From Bacilli bacterium (GTDB lineage: Bacteria; Bacillota_I; Bacilli_A; RF39; UBA660), in assembly GCA_017441845.1 (NCBI GenBank), contig JAFRVB010000005.1, positions 22,150 through 86,149 on the forward strand: a stretch of 64,000 nt of DNA, given 5' to 3'. The notes under the pieces are model-generated. The model saw only the letters and a list, made by a program, of their open reading frames with translations, was not told the origin of the DNA and did no database searches. This document shows, in pieces, positions 36,453 through 52,357 of the stretch. A program made the translations under genes and the position numbers. Position 1 is the stretch's first letter. Each line of letters starts with the position of its first letter.

Positions 36453-37151
36453 ATGAGAAATAGATTATGGAAGATAATTAATCTATTAGTAATAATATTA
36501 GTTGTATTTACTTTTTATTTTAATCGTACTGTTGAAGTTAAATCTATTGATAATAATAAAACTGTTATTATAGATAAAATAGATAATAAGAGTAAAGATA
36601 TTAATATTAAAGAATTAAGAAAACAGTATCATAATAATGATATTATGGCTTATATTGAGATACCTGGTGTAACTAAGAGTATGGTTCTTCAAAGTAGTAA
36701 TAATGATTATTATTTAAATCATGATGTTAATAAAAAAGAAGATATTAAAGGTACTGTTGTTTTAGATTTTAGAAATAAAATAAATGATAAAAAACTATTA
36801 TTATATGGACATAGTGGTAAAGAGAAAGATTTACCTTTCTTGAAACTTAATAATTATGTAAAAAAAGATTATTGGGAAAAACATAATACAATTAACTTAT
36901 ATACATTAGATGGTAAAAAAGAATATAAGATATTTTCATCTTATATAGAGACTAATGATTATGATTATGTTAACTTAAAGAGTTTTAATGGGCTTAGTTG
37001 GTATGAACATATTAATAAATTAAAAAATAAATCTTATTATAATACAGATGTTAAATTAGATAAGAATGATAAAATAATTATTTTACAGACATGTAGTATT
37101 AATAATCAGGGTTATCAAAAATATCATTTAGTAATTGGTAAAGAAGTATAA
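36453..37151 (+). CDS. srtB: Class B sortase (SrtB-like)
   Basis: N-terminal TM; LYGHSG (His); IILQTCS (TLxTC catalytic Cys); 232-aa size; a TGtGGTATAAT promoter-like element lies upstream. Confidence 0.75.
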   Translation: MRNRLWKIINLLVIILVVFTFYFNRTVEVKSIDNNKTVIIDKIDNKSKDINIKELRKQYHNNDIMAYIEIPGVTKSMVLQSSNNDYYLNHDVNKKEDIKGTVVLDFRNKINDKKLLLYGHSGKEKDLPFLKLNNYVKKDYWEKHNTINLYTLDGKKEYKIFSSYIETNDYDYVNLKSFNGLSWYEHINKLKNKSYYNTDVKLDKNDKIIILQTCSINNQGYQKYHLVIGKEV

Positions 37152-37963: not shown

Positions 37964-38383
37964 ATGAGAGATCCTGAGTTTATTTCTTTAAGGAATAAAG
38001 TATTAATTGGGCTAGGAATATTTATTGTATTTATTACTTTGATAATAATGATAATGTATAGATTCCTAGGTAATTATAGTGGTAAAGTATATGAAGATGT
38101 AGTAGCTGATAAAACTTTTGTGTTCTTACAAGTTAGTGATAACTGTAAGATGTGTGATAGTGTTATTAATGTTTTAGATGAAAGAGATATTAAATATGAG
38201 ATACTTACTATGTCTTTAAAAGATAGACATGAAGATGTTTATAAAGTGTTAAAAGTTGATAGTAGAAATATTAAAGCACCTGGTTTGTTTTATATAAATA
38301 AGGGTGAAGTTGTTTCTTATTTGAGTGATATAGAAAAAGAAGATGAACTTAATGATTTTATAGATAATTATTTAGGAGGTTAG
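37964..38383 (+). CDS. Membrane-anchored glutaredoxin/thioredoxin-like CxxC protein
   Basis: N-terminal TM; CKMC motif in a Grx-like context (FVFLQVSDNCKMCDSV). Confidence 0.45.
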   Translation: MRDPEFISLRNKVLIGLGIFIVFITLIIMIMYRFLGNYSGKVYEDVVADKTFVFLQVSDNCKMCDSVINVLDERDIKYEILTMSLKDRHEDVYKVLKVDSRNIKAPGLFYINKGEVVSYLSDIEKEDELNDFIDNYLGG

Positions 38384-39792: not shown

Positions 39793-39830
39793 AGTAAAAA
39801 GTACTTGAAAAATAAGTACTTTTTTGTTAT
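39793..39830 (+). terminator. Rho-independent terminator
   Basis: aaaagtacttgaaaaataagtactttttt. Confidence 0.6.
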
Positions 39831-39852
39831 AATCTTATTTGTCAAGTGAGAT

Positions 39853-39929
39853 GTCTGCGTAGCTCAGCTGGATAGAGCAATCGCCTTCTAAGCGATCGGT
39901 CAGGCGTTCGAATCGCCTCGCGGACACCA
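39853..39929 (+). tRNA. tRNA-Arg (anticodon TCT)
   Basis: Acceptor GTCTGCG/CGCGGAC; anticodon loop CTTCTAA; T-loop TTCGAAT; CCA end. Confidence 0.8.
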
Positions 39930-39939
39930 TTTTGTCTAA

Positions 39940-39970
39940 AGAGTTGTACTTTATAGTACAACTTTTTTAT
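39940..39970 (+). terminator. Rho-independent terminator after tRNA-Arg
   Basis: agttgtactttatagtacaactttttt. Confidence 0.6.
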
Positions 39971-40038: not shown

Positions 40039-42093
40039 ATGAAGATAGTTTTACAAGATGGTTATAAAGATTGTGGAGTTAGTTCACTTCTTTCAATCAT
40101 TAGATATTATGGAGGAGATATCTCTAAAGAAGTATTAAGGGAGATGACTAATACTAATAAAGATGGTGTTAATGCTTTAAATTTAATTAATTCAGCTAAA
40201 GAGTTAGGTTTTGATGCTTATGGTGTTAATGGTGAGATAGGGTCTCTTACTAAAGAAGATTTACCTTGTATAGCTCATACTATTATCAATAAGAGTTTAA
40301 AACATTTTATAGTAATTTATTCAATAGATGAGTCTAAAGATAAAATAACTATTATGAATCCAGAATATGGTAAAAAAGTAATAAGTTTTTCTGAATTTAA
40401 CTTGATAAGTACCCATAACTATATAATCTTAAAACCTATTAAGAAGATACCTGTATTTAAAATTAATACTTTTATTATTGATAATATTATTTCTTTTATT
40501 AAAAAGAATGTTTTAATAGTACTATTAATACTTCTATTAACTATAATCTATTTTATATTAAATATTTTAGTAGCTTTTCATTTTAAATATTTAATTAATT
40601 ATTCTATTAATTTTAATATTAGTGAAAATCTATTTATAATTAGTTATTTTATATTAATATTATTCTTATTTAGAGAAGTATATTTTCTCTTTAGAAACAT
40701 ATTATCTATTAAATTATTCTCTATATTTGATTATTCTATTACTAATAAAGTATTTGAACAGATACTTTTCTTACCATTTAATTATTATAAGAATAGATCT
40801 TCAGGAGAAATAATAAATATTATTAAAGACTTAGGTATTATAAGAGATTATTATTCTAATTTTATTATTTATTTTATTACTGATTTTATATCTATTATTA
40901 TCTTTGGTATTTTTATGTTTAATATTAGTAATAAAATAACTTTATTTGTGTTTATATATTTTATTATGATGATTATTTTGTTTATAGTAAGTAAAAAGTA
41001 TTTTGAAAATAAAATAATCAAATTAAAGAAAATAGAAGATAGAGTAAATACTAAGTTAGTTGAAGGTATAAGTAATTCTCTTACTTTAAAGAACACTCAT
41101 TCTGAGAAAAGATTTGTTGATGAATTTTCTTCTAAATATAATTATTATTTAAATTATAGTTATAAATATCTTAGAAGTAATTTTATTTATAATAGTCTTA
41201 AATCTATTGTGAATAATATATTAATTGTACTTATATTTTTAATAGGTAGTTATTATGTTATTAAGGGAGATTTATTATTAATAGATTTATTTTTGTATGA
41301 GATATTTTTTAATTATTTTAATACTAGTAGTAATCGTATTATTAATTTTATAGGTAATTATAATGATTATAATATCTCTAAAAGAAGAGTAGATGATCTA
41401 TTTAATATAAAAAGAGAATACTTCTCTAATTCATATTATTATTTACCTCATAATATGATGGGTAATATTAAGATTAATAATTTATATTATAAGATTGGGA
41501 ATAATACTTTATTTAATAGTTGTAGTTTAAAGATTAATCAAGGAGAAAAGATATTAATAATAGGTAAAAGTGGTAGTGGGAAATCTACTTTAATGAAGAT
41601 ATTGATGAGATATGTATTAATTCCTTATGGAATGGTTAGTATTAATGATATAGATATTAATCATTATCATTTAGATTCTATCCGAAGTAATATATGTTAT
41701 GTAAGTAATAATGAATATTTATTCTTTGATAATATTTATAATAATATATGTTTATATAAAGATTATTCTAAAGAAGAATATGATCAAGTTAAAAATATTT
41801 GTTTAATAGATTTTTGTACTGATAAAGATATCTGTGAAGAAGGAGGAATTAATTTTAGTAGTGGGGAAAGACAAAGAATAATTTTAGCTCGTAGTATTAT
41901 TAAAAATAGTAATATTTATATCTTTGATGAAGCTCTTAATCAGATAGATATTAATAAAGAGAAAAAGATACTTGATAATATATTTAATTTATATAAAGAT
42001 AAAACAATTATAGTAATTAGTCATCGTAATAATAATAAAAAATTATTTGATAGATGTATTGAATTAAAGAATGGGGGTTTTTATGAGAGATAG
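40039..42093 (+). CDS. Bacteriocin/competence-peptide-type ABC transporter with an N-terminal C39 peptidase domain (LagD/ComA family)
   Basis: C39 motif QDGYKDCGVSSLLSIIRYYG; TM core; Walker A GKSGSGKST; degenerate signature FSSGERQR; Walker B IYIFDEA; extremely Ile/Asn/Tyr-rich. Confidence 0.7.
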   Translation: MKIVLQDGYKDCGVSSLLSIIRYYGGDISKEVLREMTNTNKDGVNALNLINSAKELGFDAYGVNGEIGSLTKEDLPCIAHTIINKSLKHFIVIYSIDESKDKITIMNPEYGKKVISFSEFNLISTHNYIILKPIKKIPVFKINTFIIDNIISFIKKNVLIVLLILLLTIIYFILNILVAFHFKYLINYSINFNISENLFIISYFILILFLFREVYFLFRNILSIKLFSIFDYSITNKVFEQILFLPFNYYKNRSSGEIINIIKDLGIIRDYYSNFIIYFITDFISIIIFGIFMFNISNKITLFVFIYFIMMIILFIVSKKYFENKIIKLKKIEDRVNTKLVEGISNSLTLKNTHSEKRFVDEFSSKYNYYLNYSYKYLRSNFIYNSLKSIVNNILIVLIFLIGSYYVIKGDLLLIDLFLYEIFFNYFNTSSNRIINFIGNYNDYNISKRRVDDLFNIKREYFSNSYYYLPHNMMGNIKINNLYYKIGNNTLFNSCSLKINQGEKILIIGKSGSGKSTLMKILMRYVLIPYGMVSINDIDINHYHLDSIRSNICYVSNNEYLFFDNIYNNICLYKDYSKEEYDQVKNICLIDFCTDKDICEEGGINFSSGERQRIILARSIIKNSNIYIFDEALNQIDINKEKKILDNIFNLYKDKTIIVISHRNNNKKLFDRCIELKNGGFYER

Positions 42094-42469
42094 ATTTTAT
42101 ATTAATTTTGGTATATTTATATTAATTATATTAACTAGTATTTTGGTAGTATTTAGTTATACTTATAAGATTAAATATTATCATTCTATTAATATGATAT
42201 ATATGTCTGATAATAAATATGATTTATTAGTAGATAATAAAGAATTAAAATTAATTAGAAATAATAAAAGTATTTATACTGATGATAATAGGTATGATTA
42301 TAAGATTATTAAGTATAATAAAAATATTATTCATAGAGATAAATATTATCATGAATTAGTTATTGAAATTAATAAGAAAAATAAATATAAAACTAATGAT
42401 ATAATTACTGGAAGTATTATTAGTAAAAGAATTAGACTTATAAATATCTTTAGAAGTGTTTATAGTTGA
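42083..42469 (+). CDS. Small membrane-anchored protein (possible truncated accessory protein)
   Basis: Overlaps the end of the ABC gene; one TM; very AT-rich. Confidence 0.35.
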   Translation: MRDRFYINFGIFILIILTSILVVFSYTYKIKYYHSINMIYMSDNKYDLLVDNKELKLIRNNKSIYTDDNRYDYKIIKYNKNIIHRDKYYHELVIEINKKNKYKTNDIITGSIISKRIRLINIFRSVYS

Positions 42470-43194
42470 AAATTAATAAGAAAAATGGTATTATAAGACT
42501 ACTTTTTGGAGTGATGAATATGTTTAATATTAAAGATTATTTATTAGAAAAAACATTTAAACAACAACAATATGATAATGAACTATGTTTTATAGTTAGT
42601 TATTGGTTTGATGATTTATTAGTCGATGAAAGATGTTTAGAGAATAATGAAGATAGATATAATGCGATGTATAACGGAAAAGAATATTATATTTATTTTA
42701 GTGATAATAAATTTGGATTTACTTTGATACCTCAAAGTGAAGATATCTTTAATGGAGATTTTGATGATGTGATTACTTTTAGTAAAGATAATAAATCAAT
42801 TAATTTAGAAATTAAAAATAAAAAGAATAATATTTATACTGATACTAATTATAATTTTACTCTAGAAGAATTTAACAATACTGTGAAAGGTTTTTGTAAT
42901 TACAGAGAATTTAAAGATGAAGATAACAGTATTTATGATTTTTATATTAAGAGTGATAAAGAACCATATTATTTCATTAACCATTATTTAATTAATGGAG
43001 ATGGATATTGGTATAGATCTGTTATTAAGAGAAGTGAAACTCAAGAAAATATAAAAGTATTTGATAGTAATAATAGAAATAGAAGTGAAAAGATTAATTA
43101 TTTAGAGAAAGCTAATGATATTAATATTCCAATGATTAGTGAAATGACTTATGATTTGAGTAAGAGAACTGCTCATAAGAAATTATCATTGTAA
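42466..43194 (+). CDS. Hypothetical protein
   Basis: ORF with no recognised motifs; very AT-rich. Confidence 0.35.
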   Translation: MKINKKNGIIRLLFGVMNMFNIKDYLLEKTFKQQQYDNELCFIVSYWFDDLLVDERCLENNEDRYNAMYNGKEYYIYFSDNKFGFTLIPQSEDIFNGDFDDVITFSKDNKSINLEIKNKKNNIYTDTNYNFTLEEFNNTVKGFCNYREFKDEDNSIYDFYIKSDKEPYYFINHYLINGDGYWYRSVIKRSETQENIKVFDSNNRNRSEKINYLEKANDINIPMISEMTYDLSKRTAHKKLSL

Positions 43195-43227: not shown

Positions 43228-44172
43228 ATGTTAAAGATTTATAAGACAACAGCTGTTGAAAAGAAAATTAAAAAAGCTAAACGTATTAGTGTTGATTGTT
43301 GGATTGATATGGTATCACCAACATCAGAAGAAATAGATAGAGTAATTAAAGTTACTGAGATAGATAAAGATCTTATATTAAAGATGTTAGATGAAGAAGA
43401 AACTCCGAGAATTGAAGAAGATGATAATGCGATTTTAGTAGTAGTAGATACTCCTTATCTAGAAGAAGATGATGGTCATTTTACTTATAATACTAGACCA
43501 TTAGGTATTATTATTACTAATAATAATTATGTAATTACTGTTTCACCTTCAGGTACTAATGTTTTAAATGATTTTAAAAAGAATAGAGTTAAGAACTTTA
43601 GAACAGCGAAGAAAACTAGATTTTTAATACAAATATTATTATATACATCTTCTAGTTATCAAAGAGCTTTAAAGATAGTAAATAGAAAAATTGAAATTAA
43701 AGAAGAAACTTTAGTTAAATCTACTTCTAATAAAGATTTGATAGATATGTTAGATTTAGAAAAAACATTAGTATATTTTATTACTTCTTTAAAAGCTAAT
43801 GATTTGGTTTTAAAGAAACTTAGTAAAGGAATTGTATTACCTTTATATGATGAAGATGAAGATTTATTACAAGATGCGATTATTGAGAATAAACAAGCTA
43901 TAGAACAATCAGAAATCTATAGAAACATCTTGGGTAGTATTACAGATACTTATGCGACAATAGTATCTAATAATTTAAATCAAGTGATGAAATTCTTGGC
44001 TGGAGCAACAATCATTCTTTCTATACCTACAATGATATATTCATTTATGGGTATGAATGTTAAATTAGGGGCACTAGCTACTCATCCTTATGCAGCATTA
44101 GGTATTTTCTTAGGAAGTTTAGTAATTGCGATTATTGCGGTTATTTGGTTACTGAGAAGAAATATGTTATAG
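43228..44172 (+). CDS. corA: CorA-family divalent-cation transporter
   Basis: C-terminal 2 TM with FMGMN (GMN) motif. Confidence 0.75.
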   Translation: MLKIYKTTAVEKKIKKAKRISVDCWIDMVSPTSEEIDRVIKVTEIDKDLILKMLDEEETPRIEEDDNAILVVVDTPYLEEDDGHFTYNTRPLGIIITNNNYVITVSPSGTNVLNDFKKNRVKNFRTAKKTRFLIQILLYTSSSYQRALKIVNRKIEIKEETLVKSTSNKDLIDMLDLEKTLVYFITSLKANDLVLKKLSKGIVLPLYDEDEDLLQDAIIENKQAIEQSEIYRNILGSITDTYATIVSNNLNQVMKFLAGATIILSIPTMIYSFMGMNVKLGALATHPYAALGIFLGSLVIAIIAVIWLLRRNML

Positions 44173-44191: not shown

Positions 44192-45028
44192 ATGCATGTA
44201 TTAGAGTTTACAAATATTTGGAGAGATTATTATAATTCTATTATAGGAGAATTTAATGATTTCTTATTTAAATATACTAATAAAAAAGAAGGATATTCTA
44301 TACTTCAATTTCAAACAGCTCAAGAGAATTATCTTTTAGGAGTATATTTTGATTTTCTAGCTAAATTAAATGAAAAAGATTCTTCATTAATAGATCAAGA
44401 AGAAGTAAAAGATTTACTTGCTTATGATTTTTGTAGAATAGATGATGAAGAATTAACTACAGATAAATATATTGAATTTAGTGAATTTTATTTATATAGA
44501 CCTATTAATTCTTATACAGAAGATAGATATAATTTATTTAAAAAAGATTGCAATTATCTACTTATGAATAAAGAAGGTTATTGTAATAGAGTTAGTTATT
44601 TATTAAATAATAATAATGCTTTAGCTAATGCTTATACTAATTATTTATTTGATGATGTAGAAAAACAAAAATACTTATATAAAAGAACTACTAAAAGATT
44701 AAATGATATTTCTAATGGAGATATTATTAAAGATGAAGATTATCAATTACTTATAGAGAATTATAAAAGATTATATCTAAAGAAAAGAGTATATGAAGAT
44801 ATTGTTTCATTACGTAGTTCTGATATAGATTTAGATTTGTTAGGTTATAATTTCAATTATTTAAATGATGTTATTAATAATAGTTTTTCTCCATATCATG
44901 GAGAAATAGAATGTAGGGAAGAATATATTCCTATAGCGATATTAGAAGATTATTTGGAATTAAGTGATAAACTTGATAATGAATATAAAATGATTTCTAC
45001 TAAAAAGAATAAAGTATTAAAAAAATAA
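44192..45028 (+). CDS. Hypothetical protein
   Basis: ORF with a gaggtgg RBS; no recognised motifs. Confidence 0.4.
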   Translation: MHVLEFTNIWRDYYNSIIGEFNDFLFKYTNKKEGYSILQFQTAQENYLLGVYFDFLAKLNEKDSSLIDQEEVKDLLAYDFCRIDDEELTTDKYIEFSEFYLYRPINSYTEDRYNLFKKDCNYLLMNKEGYCNRVSYLLNNNNALANAYTNYLFDDVEKQKYLYKRTTKRLNDISNGDIIKDEDYQLLIENYKRLYLKKRVYEDIVSLRSSDIDLDLLGYNFNYLNDVINNSFSPYHGEIECREEYIPIAILEDYLELSDKLDNEYKMISTKKNKVLKK

Positions 45029-45078: not shown

Positions 45079-45777
45079 ATGTACAAGATTGGTATGTTTG
45101 ATTCTGGAATAGGTGGATTAAACGTCTTAGAAGAAATAAAGAAATTAATACCTAATGAAAATATTATTTATTATCAAGATTCTTCAAATAATCCTTATGG
45201 TGAAAAGACTGATGAAGAGTTATGGACTATTGTTTCAAATATAGTTGAATATTTAATAGATAAAGGTGTTAAAGAGATAATAGTAGCTTGTAATACTGCG
45301 ACTACTAGATGTATTAAAAGATTAAGAGAAGAGTATCCTGAAATAATATTTATTGGTACTGAACCTGCTATAAAAGTAGCTACTGATAATAATTATAAAA
45401 ATATTATTCTTTTAGGTACTCCAGGTACTATTAATAGTGATAGATTACATGAATTAGTTAATTGTAATCAAAGTGATGAAAATATCTATTTGATTGAATG
45501 TAGTGGTTTGGCTAATGCTATAGAGAATCATGATAATGATACAATTAATAGTTTATTACATAATTATTTAGATGAATATAAAGATAAAAATATAGATTCA
45601 GTAGTACTAGGATGTACTCATTATGGATATATAAAAGATCAAATATTAAATATCCTTGGAAATATAAAACTTATAGATGGTAATCTCGGAGTAGCGAAAC
45701 AAGCTAAACGCATGTTGGAAGAGAATAATTTACTGGATGGTACTGAAGAGGGGAAAATAGAAATAGTAGAAAGATAA
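45079..45777 (+). CDS. murI: Glutamate racemase
   Basis: DSGIGGL, ACNTAT and GCTHY motifs. Confidence 0.8.
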   Translation: MYKIGMFDSGIGGLNVLEEIKKLIPNENIIYYQDSSNNPYGEKTDEELWTIVSNIVEYLIDKGVKEIIVACNTATTRCIKRLREEYPEIIFIGTEPAIKVATDNNYKNIILLGTPGTINSDRLHELVNCNQSDENIYLIECSGLANAIENHDNDTINSLLHNYLDEYKDKNIDSVVLGCTHYGYIKDQILNILGNIKLIDGNLGVAKQAKRMLEENNLLDGTEEGKIEIVER

Positions 45778-45795
45778 GATACTGGGAGGTATATT

Positions 45796-47895
45796 ATGAG
45801 CAAATTTTTTAGAAATACTATTAATTATTTGTTAATAATGTTTTTAGTAATAATATTTATATATTGCTTATTTCAAAATCAAGATCTTAACTTTTTGGGT
45901 AATTCTTCGTATGTTGTATTTTTTCTTACTATTATAATTTCTTTTTTGCTTTTCTTTTTTATTCATCTTTTGTTTAAGAGAATTGATAAGAGTAAGCATT
46001 TAAAATTAATTAGAATTATAGCTATGTTATTTATTATAGTTATACAGGTAGTTATGATTTCTATTTTTGATGTTCAACAGGTTACTGATAGTTATTCTGT
46101 TGAAGATCATGCTTATCCTATAGCAGTTGGTCTTGCGAATAAAGTTGATCATTCTCTTGATGATTATTTTGTTGTTCACTCTAATAATAATTTTGATTTA
46201 GTATTAAACATTATTTTAATAAAGATTATTAAGTTTATTAAAATATTAAAAGTAAATGTAGGATTAGAAATATTTGCTTTGTTATGTATAGATATTTCTT
46301 TAATACTTCTTTATAAATTAGCAAGAGAGTTTTTAGATGAGAAAACTTCTACTAAAATATTAGTTTTAAATATACTTAATCCTTTAAATTATTTTATGGT
46401 TTTTTGGACATATACATGTGCTTATTCTGTTCCTTTTGTGATAGGTATTTTGTATTTAGCAGTAAAGCTCAAGAAATCAGATAAAAATATTAAAACTGTT
46501 ATTTATTCTTGTTTGTTTGCTTTGGTTGCGATAATATGTTTTTATTTAAGACCTGTTATTGTGATACCTTTAATAGCAATATTAATATGTTTCTTTATGT
46601 TTAAAGAAAAAGGACATTGGAAGAAATATTTGATGTCATTTAGTATTATATTGATTGTTTGTTTAGGAGTAGGAGCTTTAATCAATAATAGTTTTAATCG
46701 TTTAATACCTCAAGATAAAAATGATTGTTTTCCAGTTACTCATTACTTAATGATGGGATTACATAATAGAGGTGGTTGGAATTCAAGAGATGTTATTTAT
46801 ACTCAATCTCGTGCGACTACTAAGGAAAAGAAAGCAGCTAATATTAAAGAGATAAAGAGAACATTAAAAGAATATAAAGTATCTGGTCTTTTGGCTCATG
46901 AAATTGATAAATTACCAGTTACTTGGGCAAATGGTAGTTCTAGATATTATAACTTTCTTTCTCAAGATAGAAATACTAATAATTCACTAAATAAATGGGT
47001 GATAGGTGATAAGAAAGATTTAGTGGCTATATCTTGTAATGCATATAGATTACTTATTGTTTTATTTGCAATCTTTGGTACTTTTGTAATTATTAGAAAT
47101 AAAAAATATGATAAGTTATTTCTTGTTACCTTAACTCTTTTTGGAGCAATGTTATTTTATCTATTATGGGAATCAAAAGATGTTTATAGTTATCCATTCT
47201 TATCTTTATTAGGATTTATTAGTTGTTTAGGTTTATGTGATAAATTGAAAGATACTACTAAATTAGATAAGAGTGTTTATGTTTTAACAGCTATTTTGAT
47301 ATGTACTATTTTGTTTGCTTTAAAATATAATTTAACTATGGCTAATAGTAATATGAAAGATTATAGATTAAATGTATCACCAGCTTCAAATTATGGTAAT
47401 GTGGACAATCTGTTATTAAAAGATACTAAGATTACACAAAGTTTTGATATTGAAGGTAAATTTAATATAGTAGCTATATATGCTAATAAGATAAAAGAAA
47501 ATGATAATTTCTATAAGATTAAGTTATATAAAAATAATAAATTTGTTACAGAATATATAAAATCTTATAAAGATATCTATGAAAATTATATAATGTTAAA
47601 ATTACCTTCTGGTGTAGGTACTACGGGTAAATATAAATTAGAGATATCATCTGCTGATAATAATAGAAATAGAGTAGATAATCTTCGTTGGAAGTTTGTA
47701 ACTTCTCATGGATTAGATAATTATAAAGGAAAACTTAATATAGATAATAAGAGTAATTTAGGAGATTTATCAATTAAAGTATATAATAAATCTATTACTA
47801 GATATATGAGTTCTAAATTGTTCTTCTTACTATATATAGTAGTAATAGTATTACTATGTTTAGAATATAGAAATTTATATAAAAAAGAAAAATAA
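45796..47895 (+). CDS. Large polytopic membrane protein (possible membrane glycosyltransferase or polymerase)
   Basis: About 12 TM segments in the N-terminal half and a large C-terminal extracytoplasmic domain; no secure motif. Confidence 0.4.
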   Translation: MSKFFRNTINYLLIMFLVIIFIYCLFQNQDLNFLGNSSYVVFFLTIIISFLLFFFIHLLFKRIDKSKHLKLIRIIAMLFIIVIQVVMISIFDVQQVTDSYSVEDHAYPIAVGLANKVDHSLDDYFVVHSNNNFDLVLNIILIKIIKFIKILKVNVGLEIFALLCIDISLILLYKLAREFLDEKTSTKILVLNILNPLNYFMVFWTYTCAYSVPFVIGILYLAVKLKKSDKNIKTVIYSCLFALVAIICFYLRPVIVIPLIAILICFFMFKEKGHWKKYLMSFSIILIVCLGVGALINNSFNRLIPQDKNDCFPVTHYLMMGLHNRGGWNSRDVIYTQSRATTKEKKAANIKEIKRTLKEYKVSGLLAHEIDKLPVTWANGSSRYYNFLSQDRNTNNSLNKWVIGDKKDLVAISCNAYRLLIVLFAIFGTFVIIRNKKYDKLFLVTLTLFGAMLFYLLWESKDVYSYPFLSLLGFISCLGLCDKLKDTTKLDKSVYVLTAILICTILFALKYNLTMANSNMKDYRLNVSPASNYGNVDNLLLKDTKITQSFDIEGKFNIVAIYANKIKENDNFYKIKLYKNNKFVTEYIKSYKDIYENYIMLKLPSGVGTTGKYKLEISSADNNRNRVDNLRWKFVTSHGLDNYKGKLNIDNKSNLGDLSIKVYNKSITRYMSSKLFFLLYIVVIVLLCLEYRNLYKKEK

Positions 47896-47949: not shown

Positions 47950-49113
47950 ATGAAGAATAAAAATAGTGCTGGTTCCATATTATTATTTCCTATTCTTTTA
48001 ATTGCCGGTATAGGATTATTATGGTGGAATGAAGGAAATTATGTTAAAACAGCAAGTGCTATTAAAGAAGCACAAAGTGATTATTTAGAAATTAAAGATG
48101 CTAAATATGATGCTAAAAATGACAAGAAAGTTGTTGTTGTCAGTGGTCCAATAGTGGTTTCATCTGAAGCAGTTGATCAACAGTTTAAAATAAAGGATAT
48201 GACTGCTATATTAGAAAGAACTGTAGAAATGTATCAATGGGAAGAAGATTGTGATGAGGATAATCATTGTACTTATGAAAAGAAATGGTCTGAAAGTGAG
48301 ATAAGTTCTGCAGGATTTAAATCTGGACATAGTAATCCAAGTATGCCTTATAAGAGCGAAACTTTCTATTCTGATAATGTTACTTTAGGAGATTATAGTT
48401 TATCTAGAAATAATTTAGAGTATTTGAACGCTGATAGTCCATATCAATTAAATCAACAAGATGCTACTAATAATGGTATGACATTATTACAAGATAATAG
48501 ATTGTATAAAGGAAAAGATTTTACTCAACCTGAAATAGGAGATTTATTAGTTTCATTTAGTAAATTCACTTCTGATAAAGTTACAGTATTAGGAGTACAA
48601 AATGGTACTACTGTTACTAAGTTTGTAGGTAAGAGTGGAAAGAAAGTAATGTATACTATGGAAGGTATTCATACTGGAGATGAAATGTTCCAAAAACTTA
48701 TTGACAATAATAAAATGATGACTTGGTTATTAAGATTAGTAGGATGTATTTGTTTAATATGTGCAATTGCTTCTATCTTTGCACCATTAAGATTCTTAAC
48801 TGATCGTATACCTATCTTGGGTGGAATTGTTGGAGGATTAACTGGATTCTTTGCTTTACTTGTAGGATTAGCTCTATCAATTATAGTTATTGCTCTAGCA
48901 TGGTTTGCTTATAGACCTTTAGCAAGTATTATTGCTATAGTAGTAATGGCTGGATTGGTTATCTTATATATTAAGATGAAGGGTAAAAAAGCTATGGATA
49001 ATAAACAAGAGGCTGTAACTACTCAACAAACAGAAACACCACAACAACCAGTAACACCAACTCAAGAGGTACAACCAACAGAAAATGTAGAACAAAAAAA
49101 AGATGAACAATAG
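47950..49113 (+). CDS. Membrane protein (N-terminal TM, a large soluble domain, a C-terminal TM bundle, and a Q/T/P-rich tail)
   Basis: Hydrophobicity pattern only. Confidence 0.4.
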   Translation: MKNKNSAGSILLFPILLIAGIGLLWWNEGNYVKTASAIKEAQSDYLEIKDAKYDAKNDKKVVVVSGPIVVSSEAVDQQFKIKDMTAILERTVEMYQWEEDCDEDNHCTYEKKWSESEISSAGFKSGHSNPSMPYKSETFYSDNVTLGDYSLSRNNLEYLNADSPYQLNQQDATNNGMTLLQDNRLYKGKDFTQPEIGDLLVSFSKFTSDKVTVLGVQNGTTVTKFVGKSGKKVMYTMEGIHTGDEMFQKLIDNNKMMTWLLRLVGCICLICAIASIFAPLRFLTDRIPILGGIVGGLTGFFALLVGLALSIIVIALAWFAYRPLASIIAIVVMAGLVILYIKMKGKKAMDNKQEAVTTQQTETPQQPVTPTQEVQPTENVEQKKDEQ

Positions 49114-49132
49114 TTCATCTTTTTTATATTAA
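49100..49132. terminator. Bidirectional rho-independent terminator between convergent genes
   Basis: agatgaacaatagttcatct flanked by T- and A-runs. Confidence 0.55.
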
Positions 49133-50398
49133 ACTTTTTAATTTTTGACCGGTATTAGTCAGTCTTATTTTTTTGTAAGCTTTTGATTCGATTTGTCTAA
49201 TTCTTTCACGAGTAACACCTCTGTCATTAGCGATTTCTTGTAAAGTATGAGGTATCATATCATAAAAACCATTTCTTTTTAGAATAACTTCTTTTTCATG
49301 ATCTTTTAACACTTCACTTTCATTTATTATCCTAATAATATCATTGAAAGCAACTTTAGATAATATACTATTTTCAGTGTTTTCTTCATCAGGTATTAAT
49401 TCTAAGACAGTTGTTTCACGTGCTTCACCTATAGGGATATCTAGTGAAGTTGAACTAGTCATATAACTAACTTTTTTTAACTCTTGTATTTTTTCAATAT
49501 CTTCATTAAGTTGATTCTTATATAATAATTTAATAATTTCTTTTTGAATATTATTTTTATCGATATTTGGATTTTCTTTTTCTATTGCTTTTATATATGA
49601 GTTCAATTCTTTTTCGTCTAATTCAGCAATCTTTTTATTAAAATCAACCTTATCTGTATATATATATTTAGCAATTTCTTCAATAGAAGGATACTCTCCA
49701 AAGTGATTATAAGAGTATTCTTTTTCAAAGACTTCCATTTTATTAATATGCTCGATTGTATGAATTGGAACTCTAATTGTTTTGGCTGTATCACCAACAC
49801 ATCTACTAACAGCTTGTCTAATCCACCAAGTTGCATATGTAGAGAACTTAAAACCTAATGTTGGATCAAATTTTTCAACAGCTTTCATAAGTCCCACGTT
49901 TCCTTCTTGAATTAAATCTAAGAAATCAACACCTCTTTTATTATATTTTTTAGCAATAGAAATAACTAATCTTAAGTTAGATTCAATTAGTTTATCACGT
50001 GCTTCTTTATCGTTTTCATTTTGATACTTTAAGGCAAGACGTATTTCTTCTTCTGGACTTAATAATTTATTCTTTGTTACTTCACCAAAATATAACGTTA
50101 TAGCGGCATTATTTGTACTAAAAACGTCACTTGTGTCGATATTTTTTGCACTCGCTAATTCACTTTGATCAATTTCTTCAATCTCTTCTAATTCATCTTT
50201 AGTTACATCTATATCTTCATCATCAAAACAAATATCTTCTTTATTTATGCTATTATCATTAAAAATTAAGAATTCATTTATTTCTTCTATTTCTGAATCA
50301 TTAAGATTATATTTAGAAATTAAATCTTCTAACTCTTTTACAGAAATTGTTTCTCTATCACTAAGTATACTTTTAAGTTTTTCTAGTGATTCTTTCAT
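49124..50398 (-). CDS. rpoD: RNA polymerase primary sigma factor (sigma-70/SigA)
   Basis: Region 2 [33 protein letters not shown] and regions 3-4 are recognisable; acidic N-terminal region. Confidence 0.9.
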
Positions 50399-50618
50399 TT
50401 CTTATACCCCCAATAAGTGGACATATTATACCATAAAATCGTTAAAAAGTCAAAGAATTCTTACTATTAAAACTATTTTTTTAGAGTATTATTCTTATGA
50501 AAAACATCTTTTTTAATATAAAAATTTAATATTTAATAACAAGTTTTTTTGAATTATCTTTTTTGGTGATTTGTATTATTTTTGGTATTAATCTAAGATG
50601 ATGATGAAAGGAGGTAAA

Positions 50619-50780
50619 ATGATAAAATTAAATGAAAATGATTTAAGTAATATTAAAGGAGGGATGACAGTTACTGGAGGTATTGGAATAGGTATTGTAG
50701 TTACTGCGGTTATAACATTTTTATCTGGTATTATCAGAGGGTATACTAATCCGGAGGTGTGCAATGTTAAAGGAAATTAA
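50619..50780 (+). CDS. Double-glycine-leader peptide A (candidate class IIb bacteriocin subunit)
   Basis: aaggaggt RBS; leader MIKLNENDLSNIKGG; mature 38 aa, hydrophobic and G-rich (GIGIG) with one Cys. Confidence 0.6.
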   Translation: MIKLNENDLSNIKGGMTVTGGIGIGIVVTAVITFLSGIIRGYTNPEVCNVKGN

Positions 50781-50940
50781 TGATAAAGAATTAGAATCCA
50801 TTGTAGGAGGAAGCGGTTCTATTTCTTCATCAGTAATAAACGCAATAACTAATATCATTAAATTCTTGTATGATACAGGTAGTGGCGTGGGATCTGCGAT
50901 TAGAAGAATTCATGATAAAAATCTATGCCCAACAAAATAG
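50764..50940 (+). CDS. Double-glycine-leader peptide B (candidate second bacteriocin subunit); not in the ORF track because it is under 60 aa
   Basis: ggaggtg RBS; leader MLKEINDKELESIVGG; mature 42 aa with SGSIS/GSGVGS motifs and one Cys; overlaps peptide A by 17 nt; terminator hairpin at about 50943-50965. Confidence 0.6.
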   Translation: MLKEINDKELESIVGGSGSISSSVINAITNIIKFLYDTGSGVGSAIRRIHDKNLCPTK

Positions 50941-51052
50941 GAAGTATTTTACTTCCTTTTTTGTTTTGTCTTTAAAATTAAAGAAAAAAGTTGAATTTTA
51001 AATAAATATTTGCTATACTTTAACTTAGTTAGTGACGAAGGGAGGGATAAAT

Positions 51053-51256
51053 GTGGCTACTAAAGTTGTAGTAAGAGGAAATCTTGATCAAGCTTTGAAG
51101 AAATTTAAGGCAAAAGTTAATAAAGATGGCATCCCTCAAGAGTCTAAAAAACGTGAAGGTTATGATAAACCAGGAGTAAGACGTAGAGCAGCAGAAAAAG
51201 AGGGTAAGAAAAATGCTGCTAGAAGAAATAGAGCAAATAATAGAGATAGAGATTAA
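51053..51256 (+). CDS. rpsU: 30S ribosomal protein S21
   Basis: GTG start after the gaagggaggg RBS; KVVVRGNLDQALKKFK...EGYDKPGVRRR...KKNAARRNR is S21-like. Confidence 0.8.
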   Translation: MATKVVVRGNLDQALKKFKAKVNKDGIPQESKKREGYDKPGVRRRAAEKEGKKNAARRNRANNRDRD

Positions 51257-51328: not shown

Positions 51329-52357
51329 ATGAAGTGTGATAGTTGTGGTAAAACAATTGAAGATGCTAATGCTTTGACATGTCCTTTTTGTAATGCTGAA
51401 TTAAAGTCACCAGAAGAAATAGAAGTTTTGGATGACGAACCAAAAGAAGAATCTGTTCCTGAAGAAACTACTGAAAAAGTAGAGGAATCTACTGAAGAAG
51501 TAGAAGAAGCAAAGGAAGAAAAGGTTGAAGAAGAAGTAGAAGTGAAAGAAGAACCAAAAGTAGAAGAAACTATAGAACCTTCTATTATTTCTAGTGAAGA
51601 AATTTCTATTGACAGTATAGGCGTAGAAAAACCTAAAAAGAAAAAGAATAAAAAGAAAAAAGATAAAGATGCTTCTGAAGAAGAGGAAAATAAAGAGGAA
51701 CCAAAAGAAGAAGTAAAAGAAGAACAAACAGAAGAAAAACCTCAAGAAGAAGAAAAGGTAGAGGAAACTCCTCAAAATGAAGAAAAAGTTCAAGAAGAAC
51801 AAGCAGAAGAAAAATCTAAAGAAGAAGAAAAGGTAGAGGAAATTCCTCAAGAGGAAGTTAAAGAAGAACAAACAGAAGAAAAACCAGCTGAAGAAGAAAA
51901 AACTGATGAAGTTTATGAACCATTTGTTGAAGCAGAAAATGTTGTACCTTTACCACCTAAGAAAACATTAGGTTATAGAATTAAAGATTTCTATCGTAGT
52001 ATGTTTGAAGGTTATGAAAAATTACCTGAAATTAAAGTTGATGATAGAGAGACAAGATTAACTTTAGATAAGATATATGAAAAGACTAGCAAAGAAGCAG
52101 AAGATAAGAAAATTAGTGGTAATGATGTTGCGATAGTATGGTTAGCTTGCTTTGTATTTGCTTTTATAGCGTTCTTTGTACTTACTGCGATATCATTCAT
52201 TATTGACATAATTGTAGGAGATAAGAATAATACATCAATATTGACAGTTATTATTCCTGTATTCCAAATAGGAGTACCTATATTCTTCCTAGCATTTGGA
52301 TGGTTGATAGGTATTGTATACTCTTATATAAAAAGAAATAAAAAAAGAAATAGATAG
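51329..52357 (+). CDS. Zinc-ribbon, acidic-repeat, C-terminal TM protein (hypothetical)
   Basis: N-terminal CxxC...CxxC; about 170 aa of E/K/V-rich repeats (EEKVEE); 2 C-terminal TM segments. Confidence 0.5.
   Translation: MKCDSCGKTIEDANALTCPFCNAELKSPEEIEVLDDEPKEESVPEETTEKVEESTEEVEEAKEEKVEEEVEVKEEPKVEETIEPSIISSEEISIDSIGVEKPKKKKNKKKKDKDASEEEENKEEPKEEVKEEQTEEKPQEEEKVEETPQNEEKVQEEQAEEKSKEEEKVEEIPQEEVKEEQTEEKPAEEEKTDEVYEPFVEAENVVPLPPKKTLGYRIKDFYRSMFEGYEKLPEIKVDDRETRLTLDKIYEKTSKEAEDKKISGNDVAIVWLACFVFAFIAFFVLTAISFIIDIIVGDKNNTSILTVIIPVFQIGVPIFFLAFGWLIGIVYSYIKRNKKRNR

Follow-up and report, generated by a model that had tools for sequence, protein, structure and literature searches.

Does an ATP-binding cassette (ABC) exporter that carries a C39 peptidase domain, lies in unusually AT-rich DNA directly after a tRNA gene and has no double-glycine (GG) leader peptide beside it mark a foreign or decaying island, or does it belong to a larger secretion system? 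We asked this of positions 40039-43194 of a 64,000-nucleotide (nt) stretch, hereafter the window, of contig JAFRVB010000005.1 from a Bacilli bacterium. An earlier note, based on the letters of the window, had described these positions as an AT-rich island carrying a horizontally acquired or decaying bacteriocin-export module. Comparison with related loci suggests otherwise. We consider it likely that these positions hold the first half of an ancient four-gene export operon, inherited vertically, which was split in this lineage, and that the AT-richness is a property of the protein family. The exporter and a small accessory protein have probably been inherited vertically in at least 80 species of uncultured gut Bacilli, with about 170 as the probable number.

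An alignment of the exporter family was scanned against one genome per species, and a relative was found in 173 stretches; 80 of these loci were examined. Together with three loci from protein look-ups and the window itself they form a set of 84 loci, in which six-frame open reading frames (ORFs) were compared with the proteins of the window. All loci from the scan belong to uncultured gut or rumen Bacilli, under labels such as Erysipelotrichaceae, Tenericutes and Bacilli. A compact gene order, defined by both peptides starting at most 700 nt past the exporter stop, was observed in 75/84 loci: a peptidase-containing ABC transporter (PCAT), an accessory protein of ~130 amino acids (aa), GG-leader peptide A, GG-leader peptide B, and then rpsU. 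The accessory gene was present in 80 of the 84 loci and overlapped the ABC gene by 10-31 nt in most. Orthologues of peptide A and of peptide B were each found in 79/84 loci. Peptide A abuts the accessory gene in the compact loci, with gaps of -47 to +12 nt, and the distance from A to B is mostly -4 nt. The gene rpsU follows peptide B in 76/84 loci, at a distance of 42-258 nt in all but one of 64 measured. Because of the overlaps and tiny gaps in the compact loci, the four genes appear to form a translationally coupled operon.

The window has a split form of this operon, which it shares with six loci at 57-82% identity (L001, L003-L006 and L009), and in these loci the peptides lie 2.8-9.6 kb past the exporter stop. 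The earlier note was right that GG-leader substrates are not adjacent to the exporter, since the peptide pair of the window is ~8.5 kb away; no other GG-leader ORF was found in the 64 kb. A neighbour-joining tree of the exporter, midpoint-rooted and with 83 tips, left out L009 because of its partial exporter sequence. In it the split loci, together with the relative L002, made up a single exclusive clade of 7, and compact loci stood to either side of the root, which makes the compact form the ancestral one. As 75 of the 84 loci are compact, and as the insertion of 2.5-9 kb occurs only in the clade of the window, the pair at 50619-50940 is likely the cognate cargo of the exporter. The same note had named this pair as the nearest candidate, and the orthologous pair directly follows exporter and accessory in 75/84 loci. 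The exporter thus looks "orphan" because other genes have come to lie between accessory and peptides.

Both its architecture and its catalytic residues make the exporter a PCAT. Pfam identified Peptidase_C39 (PF03412; aa 2-133, E = 5e-26), ABC_membrane (PF00664; aa 162-430, E = 4e-27) and ABC_tran (PF00005; aa 493-634, E = 9e-23, in an ATPase region of aa 493-684). The C39 residues are Q6, C12 (nt 40072-40074), H89 (nt 40303-40305) and N107; in the alignment with PCAT1, the best solved relative, C12 and H89 fall on the catalytic Cys and His, and Q6 on the oxyanion Gln. This agrees with the description of a 684-aa C39 exporter with intact Cys and His, a transmembrane (TM) core and an ATPase. 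Motif columns were counted in an alignment of 203 exporter family members, 193 of which span the columns of Q6 and C12. H89 was found in 203/203 sequences, and Q6 and C12 in 193/193. The Gly and Lys residues of Walker A (GxSGxGKS/T, aa 509-517) and the Walker B residues D630/E631 are invariant in the 203 sequences, and H662 of the H-loop is kept in 202. The signature at aa 606-612 (nt 41854-41874) does read FSSGERQ, as had been reported, but it is not degenerate. S607, G609, E610 and Q612 are invariant in all 203 members, so that FSSGERQ represents the conserved signature of a family with the form xS[N/S/G]GE[R/K]Q, and PCAT1, a functional PCAT whose structure has been characterised, has LSEGQKQ, likewise different from LSGGQ.

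Ratios of nonsynonymous to synonymous substitutions (dN/dS), computed against the two closest relatives, were 0.19 and 0.24 for the exporter; for comparison, murI gave 0.14-0.20 and CorA 0.14. With a full-length ORF, conserved motifs and these ratios, the suspicion of decay finds no support. At E <= 1e-10, 820 homologues of the exporter were found, and the top 120 are nearly all full length, with 48-82% identity, from uncultured "Bacilli bacterium" assemblies. The identical protein is recorded on 7 contigs; three of these places were inspected, and they come from three different samples with the same neighbour genes to each contig's limit. The exporter matched TIGR01193 (peptide cleavage/export ABC transporter) over its full length with 294.3 bits (E = 2e-87), below the curated cut-off of 523.85 bits, and is thus a divergent relative, not a member by threshold. 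The match to NF045998 (Mbov_0121 family) was lower, at 265.1 bits against a cut-off of 500.

The AT-richness itself is real. Windowed GC content of 40039-43194 (3156 nt) was 19.0%, the lowest of all stretches of this size (against 27.0±2.5%, z = -3.3), compared with 27.1% for the whole window. Per ORF, it was 19.1% for the exporter, 15.8% for the 132-aa ORF and 21.3% for the 242-aa ORF; the last two correspond in their coordinates to the two further AT-rich ORFs said to follow the exporter. F, Y, M, I, N and K together (FYMINK) make up 53-59% of the proteins, with 53% in the exporter and 59% in the small ORF, whereas most neighbours have 31-44%. The claim of a stronger AT bias than in the flanking genes therefore holds for overall GC and for FYMINK, but not for GC at third codon positions (GC3), where the exporter (0.111) equals the flanking housekeeping genes (0.10-0.14; neighbour median 0.12). 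The deficit is located at codon positions 1+2, with 0.231 in the exporter and ~0.33 in the flanks. The comparison was repeated on 75 loci, each from a different species: the GC content of the exporter was under the median of neighbouring long ORFs in 75/75, with mean differences of -0.064 for positions 1+2 and +0.005 for GC3. Because the deficit lies in positions 1+2, with GC3 unchanged, and recurs in all 75 loci, the AT-richness is best described as an inherited trait of the protein family and not as a foreign signature. Judged by codon positions, it is the outcome of amino-acid composition under the AT mutational pressure of the genome, and the word "island" is not upheld where it stands for foreign DNA. 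The earlier note had held that uniform composition, together with conservation of the locus at this site, would speak against its view; the locus is indeed kept at the same site in relatives, whereas the local anomaly in composition is genuine.

The tRNA gene upstream was confirmed as tRNA-Arg(TCT). It is flanked by a promoter-like site (39805-39833) and a terminator-like hairpin (39938-39967), and its end is 109 nt from the exporter start, so that the placement directly after a tRNA gene was correctly described. The same tRNA gene lies upstream of the exporter in L001-L003 and, more widely, in 35 of the 59 loci having >3 kb of upstream sequence, within 540 nt in 19 of these. The upstream genes are also syntenic across relatives: a sortase, a 139-aa CxxC (Trx-like) membrane protein, a short-chain dehydrogenase (SDR) and a DUF5684/zinc-ribbon protein. 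This upstream synteny and the downstream rpsU are common to compact and split loci, and synteny of the locus including the tRNA holds in relatives down to 42% identity. A tRNA-associated island would be expected to have a patchy distribution, whereas the locus was present and syntenic in 84/84 loci examined. No second copy of the tRNA 3' end, which such an island would have as a direct repeat at its far border, was found anywhere in the window, even allowing 3 mismatches, and repeats flanking 39.6-45.2 kb were only low-complexity AT chance matches. There was no integrase or other mobile-element family among the domain matches of the ORFs tested between 39.1 and 49.1 kb, and PADLOC and PHROGs gave no match on the unknown ORFs. 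In the whole window Rfam recognised nothing but tRNAs; neither riboswitches nor leader RNAs turned up close to the exporter, to CorA or to the peptides. With equal GC3, synteny down to 42% identity and neither a tRNA repeat nor a mobile-element match in the ORFs tested, the suggested horizontal acquisition did not hold, and the tRNA gene appears as a conserved neighbour of the locus.

The small membrane ORF that overlaps the 3' end of the exporter is real and is a conserved partner of it in 80/84 loci. It overlaps the exporter stop by 11 nt from the ATG at 42083, which gene callers take, or by 23 nt from the alternative start at 42071. A profile search of 1.84 billion representatives gave 161 relatives, nearly all of 125-145 aa, so that the accessory represents a stand-alone small family and not a truncated larger protein. 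A truncated HlyD, as the note had proposed for this ORF, was considered and rejected: the whole family has this length, Pfam searches on 141 members gave no HlyD match but noise only, and the accessory profile had no match among PDB sequences. The sole recurrent family match was NCBIfam MAG1140_fam (NF045999), which matched 40 of the 141 members at E <= 0.01 (best 1.7e-7). For the accessory of the window it gave E = 2e-6 and 27.7-27.9 bits, under the cut-off of 35, with aa 5-123 aligned on positions 7-124 of 126. These matches point to a distant homology with the MAG1140 family, outside which the accessory stands by the curated cut-off. The accessory evolves faster than the exporter, with a mean pairwise identity of 0.30 compared with 0.51 and dN/dS of 0.41 and 0.35.

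To describe its shape, we modelled the accessory with AlphaFold2 (AF2). An alignment of 10 sequences gave a mean local confidence (pLDDT) of 51, and one of 141 sequences gave a pLDDT of 93 and a predicted TM-score (pTM) of 0.71. The latter model comprises a TM helix (residues 2-27), six strands and two further helices, a short one (52-60) and one at the C-terminus (119-127), i.e., a predicted N-terminal TM helix followed by a ~100-aa six-strand β-domain, with neither a coiled-coil hairpin nor a lipoyl domain. Foldseek against the PDB gave nothing at E <= 0.001. Weak matches included the membrane fusion proteins (MFPs) Spr0693, BesA, MexA, AcrA, ZneB, EmrA and MacA (5XU0, 4KKT, 6TA5, 2F1M, 3LNN and 8ZAL among them) at E 0.6-1.5, with whole-query TM-scores of 0.34-0.40 and root-mean-square deviations of 3.4-4.6 Å over ~80 columns; the six-stranded barrels of the HerA N-terminus and of riboflavin kinase matched equally well. 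With matches as weak as these, the idea of a pared-down adaptor barrel is to be taken as a lead, not as a result. Charges flanking the TM helix (+2.8 before, +1.5 after) favour an N-terminus inside and a β-domain outside the cell. The protein is most likely a minimal partner of the exporter.

The two peptides are encoded by genes that overlap by 17 nt in the window, with leaders of 15-16 aa ending in GG. A GGAGG ribosome-binding site precedes each gene, that of peptide A at about 50610, and a terminator-like hairpin (50939-50957) follows peptide B. Mature peptide A is hydrophobic, with a GxxxG motif (GIIRG) and a single Cys near the C-terminus, and mature peptide B is amphipathic, with a GxxxG motif (GSGVG) and the tail IRRIHDKNLCPTK. 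Across species the leaders are typically 15 residues long. Mature A has 30-34 aa and is hydrophobic, with the consensus ...FlsGvieGitnP..C.., and mature B has 41-43 aa and is amphipathic, with the consensus ...iina.vn.Ik.l.dAG...GS.iRRi.e.nlCPL. The GxxxG motif is present in 78/79 A and 74/75 B mature peptides. A single Cys was found in 69/77 A peptides, and 70/74 B peptides have theirs exactly 3 residues from the C-terminus. The mature peptides are as conserved as the transporter (mean pairwise identity 0.47 for A and 0.52 for B, against 0.51 for the exporter), with dN/dS of 0.16-0.26. Peptide A matched the NCBIfam model for lactococcin G-beta/enterocin 1071B with E = 5e-5 and 23.3 bits, below the cut-off of 37, and peptide B matched TIGR01847 (bacteriocin double-glycine signal) with 19.5 bits, above the cut-off of 15.7. 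These matches are weak, but they agree in direction. The two peptides resemble two-peptide (class IIb) bacteriocins in sequence and may have an antimicrobial role.

A block upstream of peptide A is shared by split loci. It reads …TGATTTGT…TAAT…GAAAGGAGG and was found at 50540-50618 of the window, at 16397-16536 of L001 and at 9954-10093 of L009. This block may be a promoter gained after the peptides parted from the exporter; it was not called by a consensus scan.

A further observation concerns the 139-aa protein encoded at 37964-38383, which has an N-terminal TM helix and the motif CKMC (CxxC) and is weakly glutaredoxin-like (E = 0.024). Its orthologue in L003 has a "faint" PedC-like match, and in 20 loci the CxxC protein and an adjacent dehydrogenase are encoded upstream of the exporter, at a distance of a few kb. 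The CxxC protein could act on the two exported peptides by oxidising their single cysteines, or be simply syntenic.

From these components, a mechanism can be proposed by analogy with work on the transport cycles of PCAT1 and ComA (PMC6959990, PMC8794836). The two precursors, with their 15-residue leaders ending in GG, would be bound by the N-terminal C39 domain (Q6, C12, H89, N107), and the leader would be cut after GG while the cargo occupies the cavity that the homodimer forms in the membrane. Binding of ATP to the nucleotide-binding domains would then drive release of the cargo outside. The accessory, translationally coupled to the exporter and probably oriented N-in with an external β-domain, would most likely act as its stoichiometric partner. 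The mature peptides, one hydrophobic (~31-38 aa) and one amphipathic (~42 aa), would act together on a target membrane in the manner of class IIb bacteriocins. In the clade of the window, 2.5-9 kb of ordinary chromosomal genes were inserted between accessory and peptides.

Several observations weigh against a working operon of this kind. The Q-loop position 557 (nt 41707-41709) is Asn in the exporter (VSNN), where PCAT1 has the Q of VSQD; of the 203 family sequences, 118 have Ser at this position, 58 have Asn and only 15 have Gln, with an invariant acidic residue, E559, two positions further on. Such a replacement is unusual among ABC exporters. Since the Gln is replaced by Ser or Asn in ~176/203 members, coupling of the ATPase to transport may be atypical. 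The third catalytic residue of the C39 domain is Asn107 (nt 40357-40359), a feature of the window's clade (12/203 sequences), and is Asp in the other 191. The relative L002 has no peptide pair within 10 kb. The split peptides need a promoter of their own, yet consensus scanning of the + strand upstream of 50619 gave no sigma-70-like site. The fold matches of the accessory were not significant (best E = 0.17), and its likeness to MFP barrels may offer a lead only. Finally, the compact loci hold no immunity gene between the exporter-accessory pair, the peptides and rpsU, where the accessory is the sole candidate, and the near-universal conservation of the cassette is unusual for a bacteriocin. 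These two points, and the single conserved Cys of each peptide, which could form an inter-chain disulfide, speak against calling the peptides bacteriocins.

These points bear differently on the other explanations. An acquired or decaying bacteriocin-export island beside tRNA-Arg, its substrates lost, would account for the lowest GC content of the window lying directly 3' of a tRNA gene, for the two unknown ORFs after the exporter, for a signature other than LSGGQ and for the third ORF of 224 aa, which is indeed confined to close relatives. We give it next to no credence, as GC3 is identical to that of the flanks and the AT excess at positions 1+2 recurs in all 75 orthologous loci, synteny including the tRNA extends across species, the tRNA 3' end is unrepeated and no integrase or other mobile-element match was found in the ORFs tested; the dN/dS of ~0.2, the invariant active-site residues and the signature variant kept across the family also contradict decay. 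Alternatively, the ~130-aa membrane protein could be the immunity protein of the peptide pair instead of a transport accessory. This would suit its small size, its membrane anchor and a rate of evolution above that of the exporter, a frequent trait of immunity proteins, and the cassette has no other gene that could fill this function. In the clade of the window, however, it has stayed overlapped with the exporter although the peptides are kilobases away, and its six-strand β-domain weakly resembles the membrane-proximal barrel of transporter adaptors. Its distant homologues, the MAG1140 family, are mycoplasmal; NF045998 and NF045999 have consecutive accession numbers, and from this alone we assume that the mycoplasma MAG1140 proteins have a peptidase-ABC transporter as their partner. 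No GG peptides have been recognised for the C39-ABC genes of mycoplasmas. We therefore regard an immunity role as unlikely and keep the transport partner as the preferred assignment.

A more serious alternative leaves exporter and cargo as described and takes the peptides as a conserved heterodimer, either secreted or inserted in the membrane, with a physiological role such as signalling or an envelope function; a disulfide between their single C-terminal cysteines may join the two. The cassette occurs in 173 species representatives, almost universally beside rpsU, the peptides are conserved to the same degree as the transporter, the gap of only 42-258 nt between peptide B and rpsU has no room taken by an immunity gene, each peptide has one conserved Cys, and a membrane-anchored CxxC protein is encoded a few kb upstream in 20 loci. 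On the other hand, two adjacent GG-leader genes with GxxxG in both products, one hydrophobic and one amphipathic, are the hallmark of class IIb bacteriocins, compact loci have neither a histidine kinase nor a response regulator linked to them, immunity might be intrinsic or come from a gene outside the cassette, and the link to the CxxC protein may be mere synteny. We consider this non-bacteriocin role possible rather than probable. It could also be that the exporter has a different substrate or task, as has been suggested for an orphan C39-ABC gene in a minimal mycoplasma cell, and that the proximity of GG peptides is coincidental. The non-canonical Q-loop would fit, and the literature holds a precedent in a mycoplasma C39-ABC without GG peptides, for which a speculative role in lipoyl-peptide import was put forward (PMC6609329). 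Such a coincidence is hard to reconcile with overlapping, co-oriented genes in 75/84 species, with leaders that fit the GG consensus cut by C39 domains and with the invariant catalytic Q, C and H, and we judge it very improbable. The split export operon, with the two peptides as its cargo, remains the reading that we favour.

Features of the locus, with positions in the window
Feature	Positions	Strand	Remarks
tRNA-Arg(TCT)	39853..39929	+	ARAGORN, Rfam; conserved upstream neighbour, not integration site
PCAT-type exporter, 684 aa	40039..42093	+	Pfam; best solved relative PCAT1
Accessory, 128 aa	42083..42469	+	overlaps exporter stop; gene callers take ATG 42083 (alternative start 42071 gives 132 aa)
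Unknown 224-aa protein	42520..43194	+	first gene of inserted block; gene-caller start (ORF opens 42466, 242 aa)
CorA	43228..44172	+	inserted block; Pfam
278-aa ORF	44192..45028	+	inserted block; no family match
Glutamate racemase (murI)	45079..45777	+	inserted block
699-aa membrane protein	45796..47895	+	inserted block
TMEM43-like	47950..49113	+	inserted block
Sigma-70 factor	49124..50398	-	inserted block
GG-leader peptide A, 53 aa	50619..50780	+	leader MIKLNENDLSNIKGG, mature 38 aa MTVTGGIGIGIVVTAVITFLSGIIRGYTNPEVCNVKGN
GG-leader peptide B, 58 aa	50764..50940	+	leader MLKEINDKELESIVGG, mature 42 aa SGSISSSVINAITNIIKFLYDTGSGVGSAIRRIHDKNLCPTK
rpsU (ribosomal protein S21)	51053..51256	+	downstream anchor of cassette; ORF opens 51032, likely start GTG 51053

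The inserted block of the window runs from 42470 to about 50618 and is absent between accessory and peptides in the 75 compact loci. Its first gene, for the 224-aa protein, has six homologues of 225-232 aa with 42-62% identity, in close relatives only, and among the loci it occurs only in L009. The dN/dS was 0.44. Pfam, PADLOC and PHROGs gave no match to the protein, and NCBIfam gave one weak match, MazE/PemI, with E = 0.008 and 16 bits against a cut-off of 50. It is a real gene, part of the insertion and not of the export module. The window and L009 share the 224-aa gene, CorA, the 278-aa gene, murI and, further on, the TMEM43-like gene. Other split loci have other contents: L001 has no CorA, L004 has a 439-aa gene and CorA, and L003 has a histidine kinase and other genes. 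Because the inserted content differs among split loci, the junction between accessory and peptides appears to have been hit repeatedly.

Additional observations were made around the locus. The accessory-peptide junction behaves as a local rearrangement hotspot with no visible mobile element. The 278-aa protein of the inserted block was found in the closest relatives only (L001, L009), with dN/dS of 0.54-0.62, a GC content of 20% and GC3 of 0.06. The rpsU gene has its own promoter-like site (50991-51019), and the family consensus MATKV... and the sequence GGGAGGG at 51040-51046 point to GTG 51053 as its start, not GTG 51032. It is followed, in the window as in L001 and L009, by a gene for a 342-aa protein (51329-52357) with a zinc ribbon at the N-terminus, a long repetitive middle rich in Glu and Lys and a membrane segment at the C-terminus. 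Opposite this gene, the other strand has a 154-aa ORF (51407-51871) that arises as an artefact of the repeat. On the upstream side, the sortase gene (36453-37151) lies ~3 kb from the exporter, with orthologues 3.5-3.8 kb upstream in L001 and L002. Upstream of the sortase, L001 (1-6437) has genes for proteins with pilin-type domains (SpaA, Cna_B and VWA).

The locus shows that an 8-point drop in GC content beside a tRNA gene can be purely an effect of protein composition under AT pressure, and that an "orphan" exporter can be rejoined with its cargo through comparative synteny. It also defines an operon of PCAT, mini-accessory and two unusually conserved peptides in 173 species representatives, all of them uncultured Bacilli from gut or rumen, with an accessory family that has no Pfam entry or described function. 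The operon is functional-looking, and it is distinctive in this undescribed mini-accessory family, in a lineage-wide two-peptide cargo without an immunity gene and in a non-canonical Q-loop.

Among characterized systems, the closest is PCAT1 of Clostridium thermocellum (PDB 4RY2, 6V9Z, 7T54-57), which has the same full-length combination of C39 domain, six-helix ABC core and ATPase (E = 1.4e-78, aa 6-682); ComA of Streptococcus (8HF4-7) shares this architecture (E = 5e-67). Common to the exporter and these two are the oxyanion Gln, the catalytic Cys and His, Walker A and B, the D-loop and the H-loop. The exporter differs in having only ~25-30% identity to them and an extremely AT-driven composition, Asn or Ser in place of the Q-loop Gln, Glu for Gln at position 5 of the signature and, in its clade, Asn as the third catalytic residue. 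Unlike both, it is paired with a ~130-aa accessory. PCAT1 is not known to have an accessory protein, and that of ComA is ComB, with ~450 aa.

The mycoplasma families NF045998 and NF045999 offer a similar pair of a peptidase-ABC exporter and a ~126-aa protein, and the accessory aligns with the latter end to end. With 265 bits against 500 and 27.9 against 35, the proteins of the window are not members of these families. Breuer et al. 2019 (PMC6609329) noted that in the minimal cell JCVI-syn3A no GG peptide is a candidate for the C39-ABC gene 0401, which matches other mycoplasmas (citing Dirix et al. 2004), and tentatively assigned it a different role. Mycoplasma C39-ABC genes are thus reported without GG peptides (PMC6609329), whereas such peptides are evident in the Bacilli loci. 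In the literature we found no functional study of MAG1140 or of Mbov_0121, the latter being merely listed, and no study of C39 peptidases in mycoplasmas or of bacteriocins in RF39/RFN20. Because the Bacilli loci are distant relatives with obvious peptides, they offer peptide profiles with which the mycoplasma orphans can be re-examined and the missing substrates of this puzzle (PMC6609329) sought. As a tentative extension, which we think rather doubtful, the cassette may be no conventional bacteriocin locus but a secretion module that belongs to the core of a whole lineage of Mollicutes-related Bacilli with reduced genomes, exporting a conserved Cys-joined peptide heterodimer via a previously undescribed minimal adaptor of a TM helix and one β-barrel; small unannotated GG-peptide genes downstream would then also explain the orphan C39-ABC/MAG1140 pairs of mycoplasmas, possibly including that of JCVI-syn3A, whose family membership is assumed here.

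The class IIb systems (lactococcin G and enterocin 1071, with LagD-type exporters) resemble the cassette in two overlapping GG-leader genes, GxxxG motifs in both peptides and a C39-ABC gene in the operon. The cassette differs from them in a match to the lactococcin G-beta model of 23.3 bits, below the cut-off of 37, in lacking an adjacent immunity gene and in having one conserved C-terminal Cys in each peptide. It is also chromosomal and conserved, beside rpsU in all 76 loci with rpsU, and not strain-variable. Compared with accessory proteins of the HlyD/ComB/LcnD type, the accessory is far shorter (~130 aa as opposed to 350-480 aa), and its model has no coiled-coil hairpin or lipoyl domain; it shares with them an N-terminal membrane anchor, a gene beside the exporter and a likely external domain.

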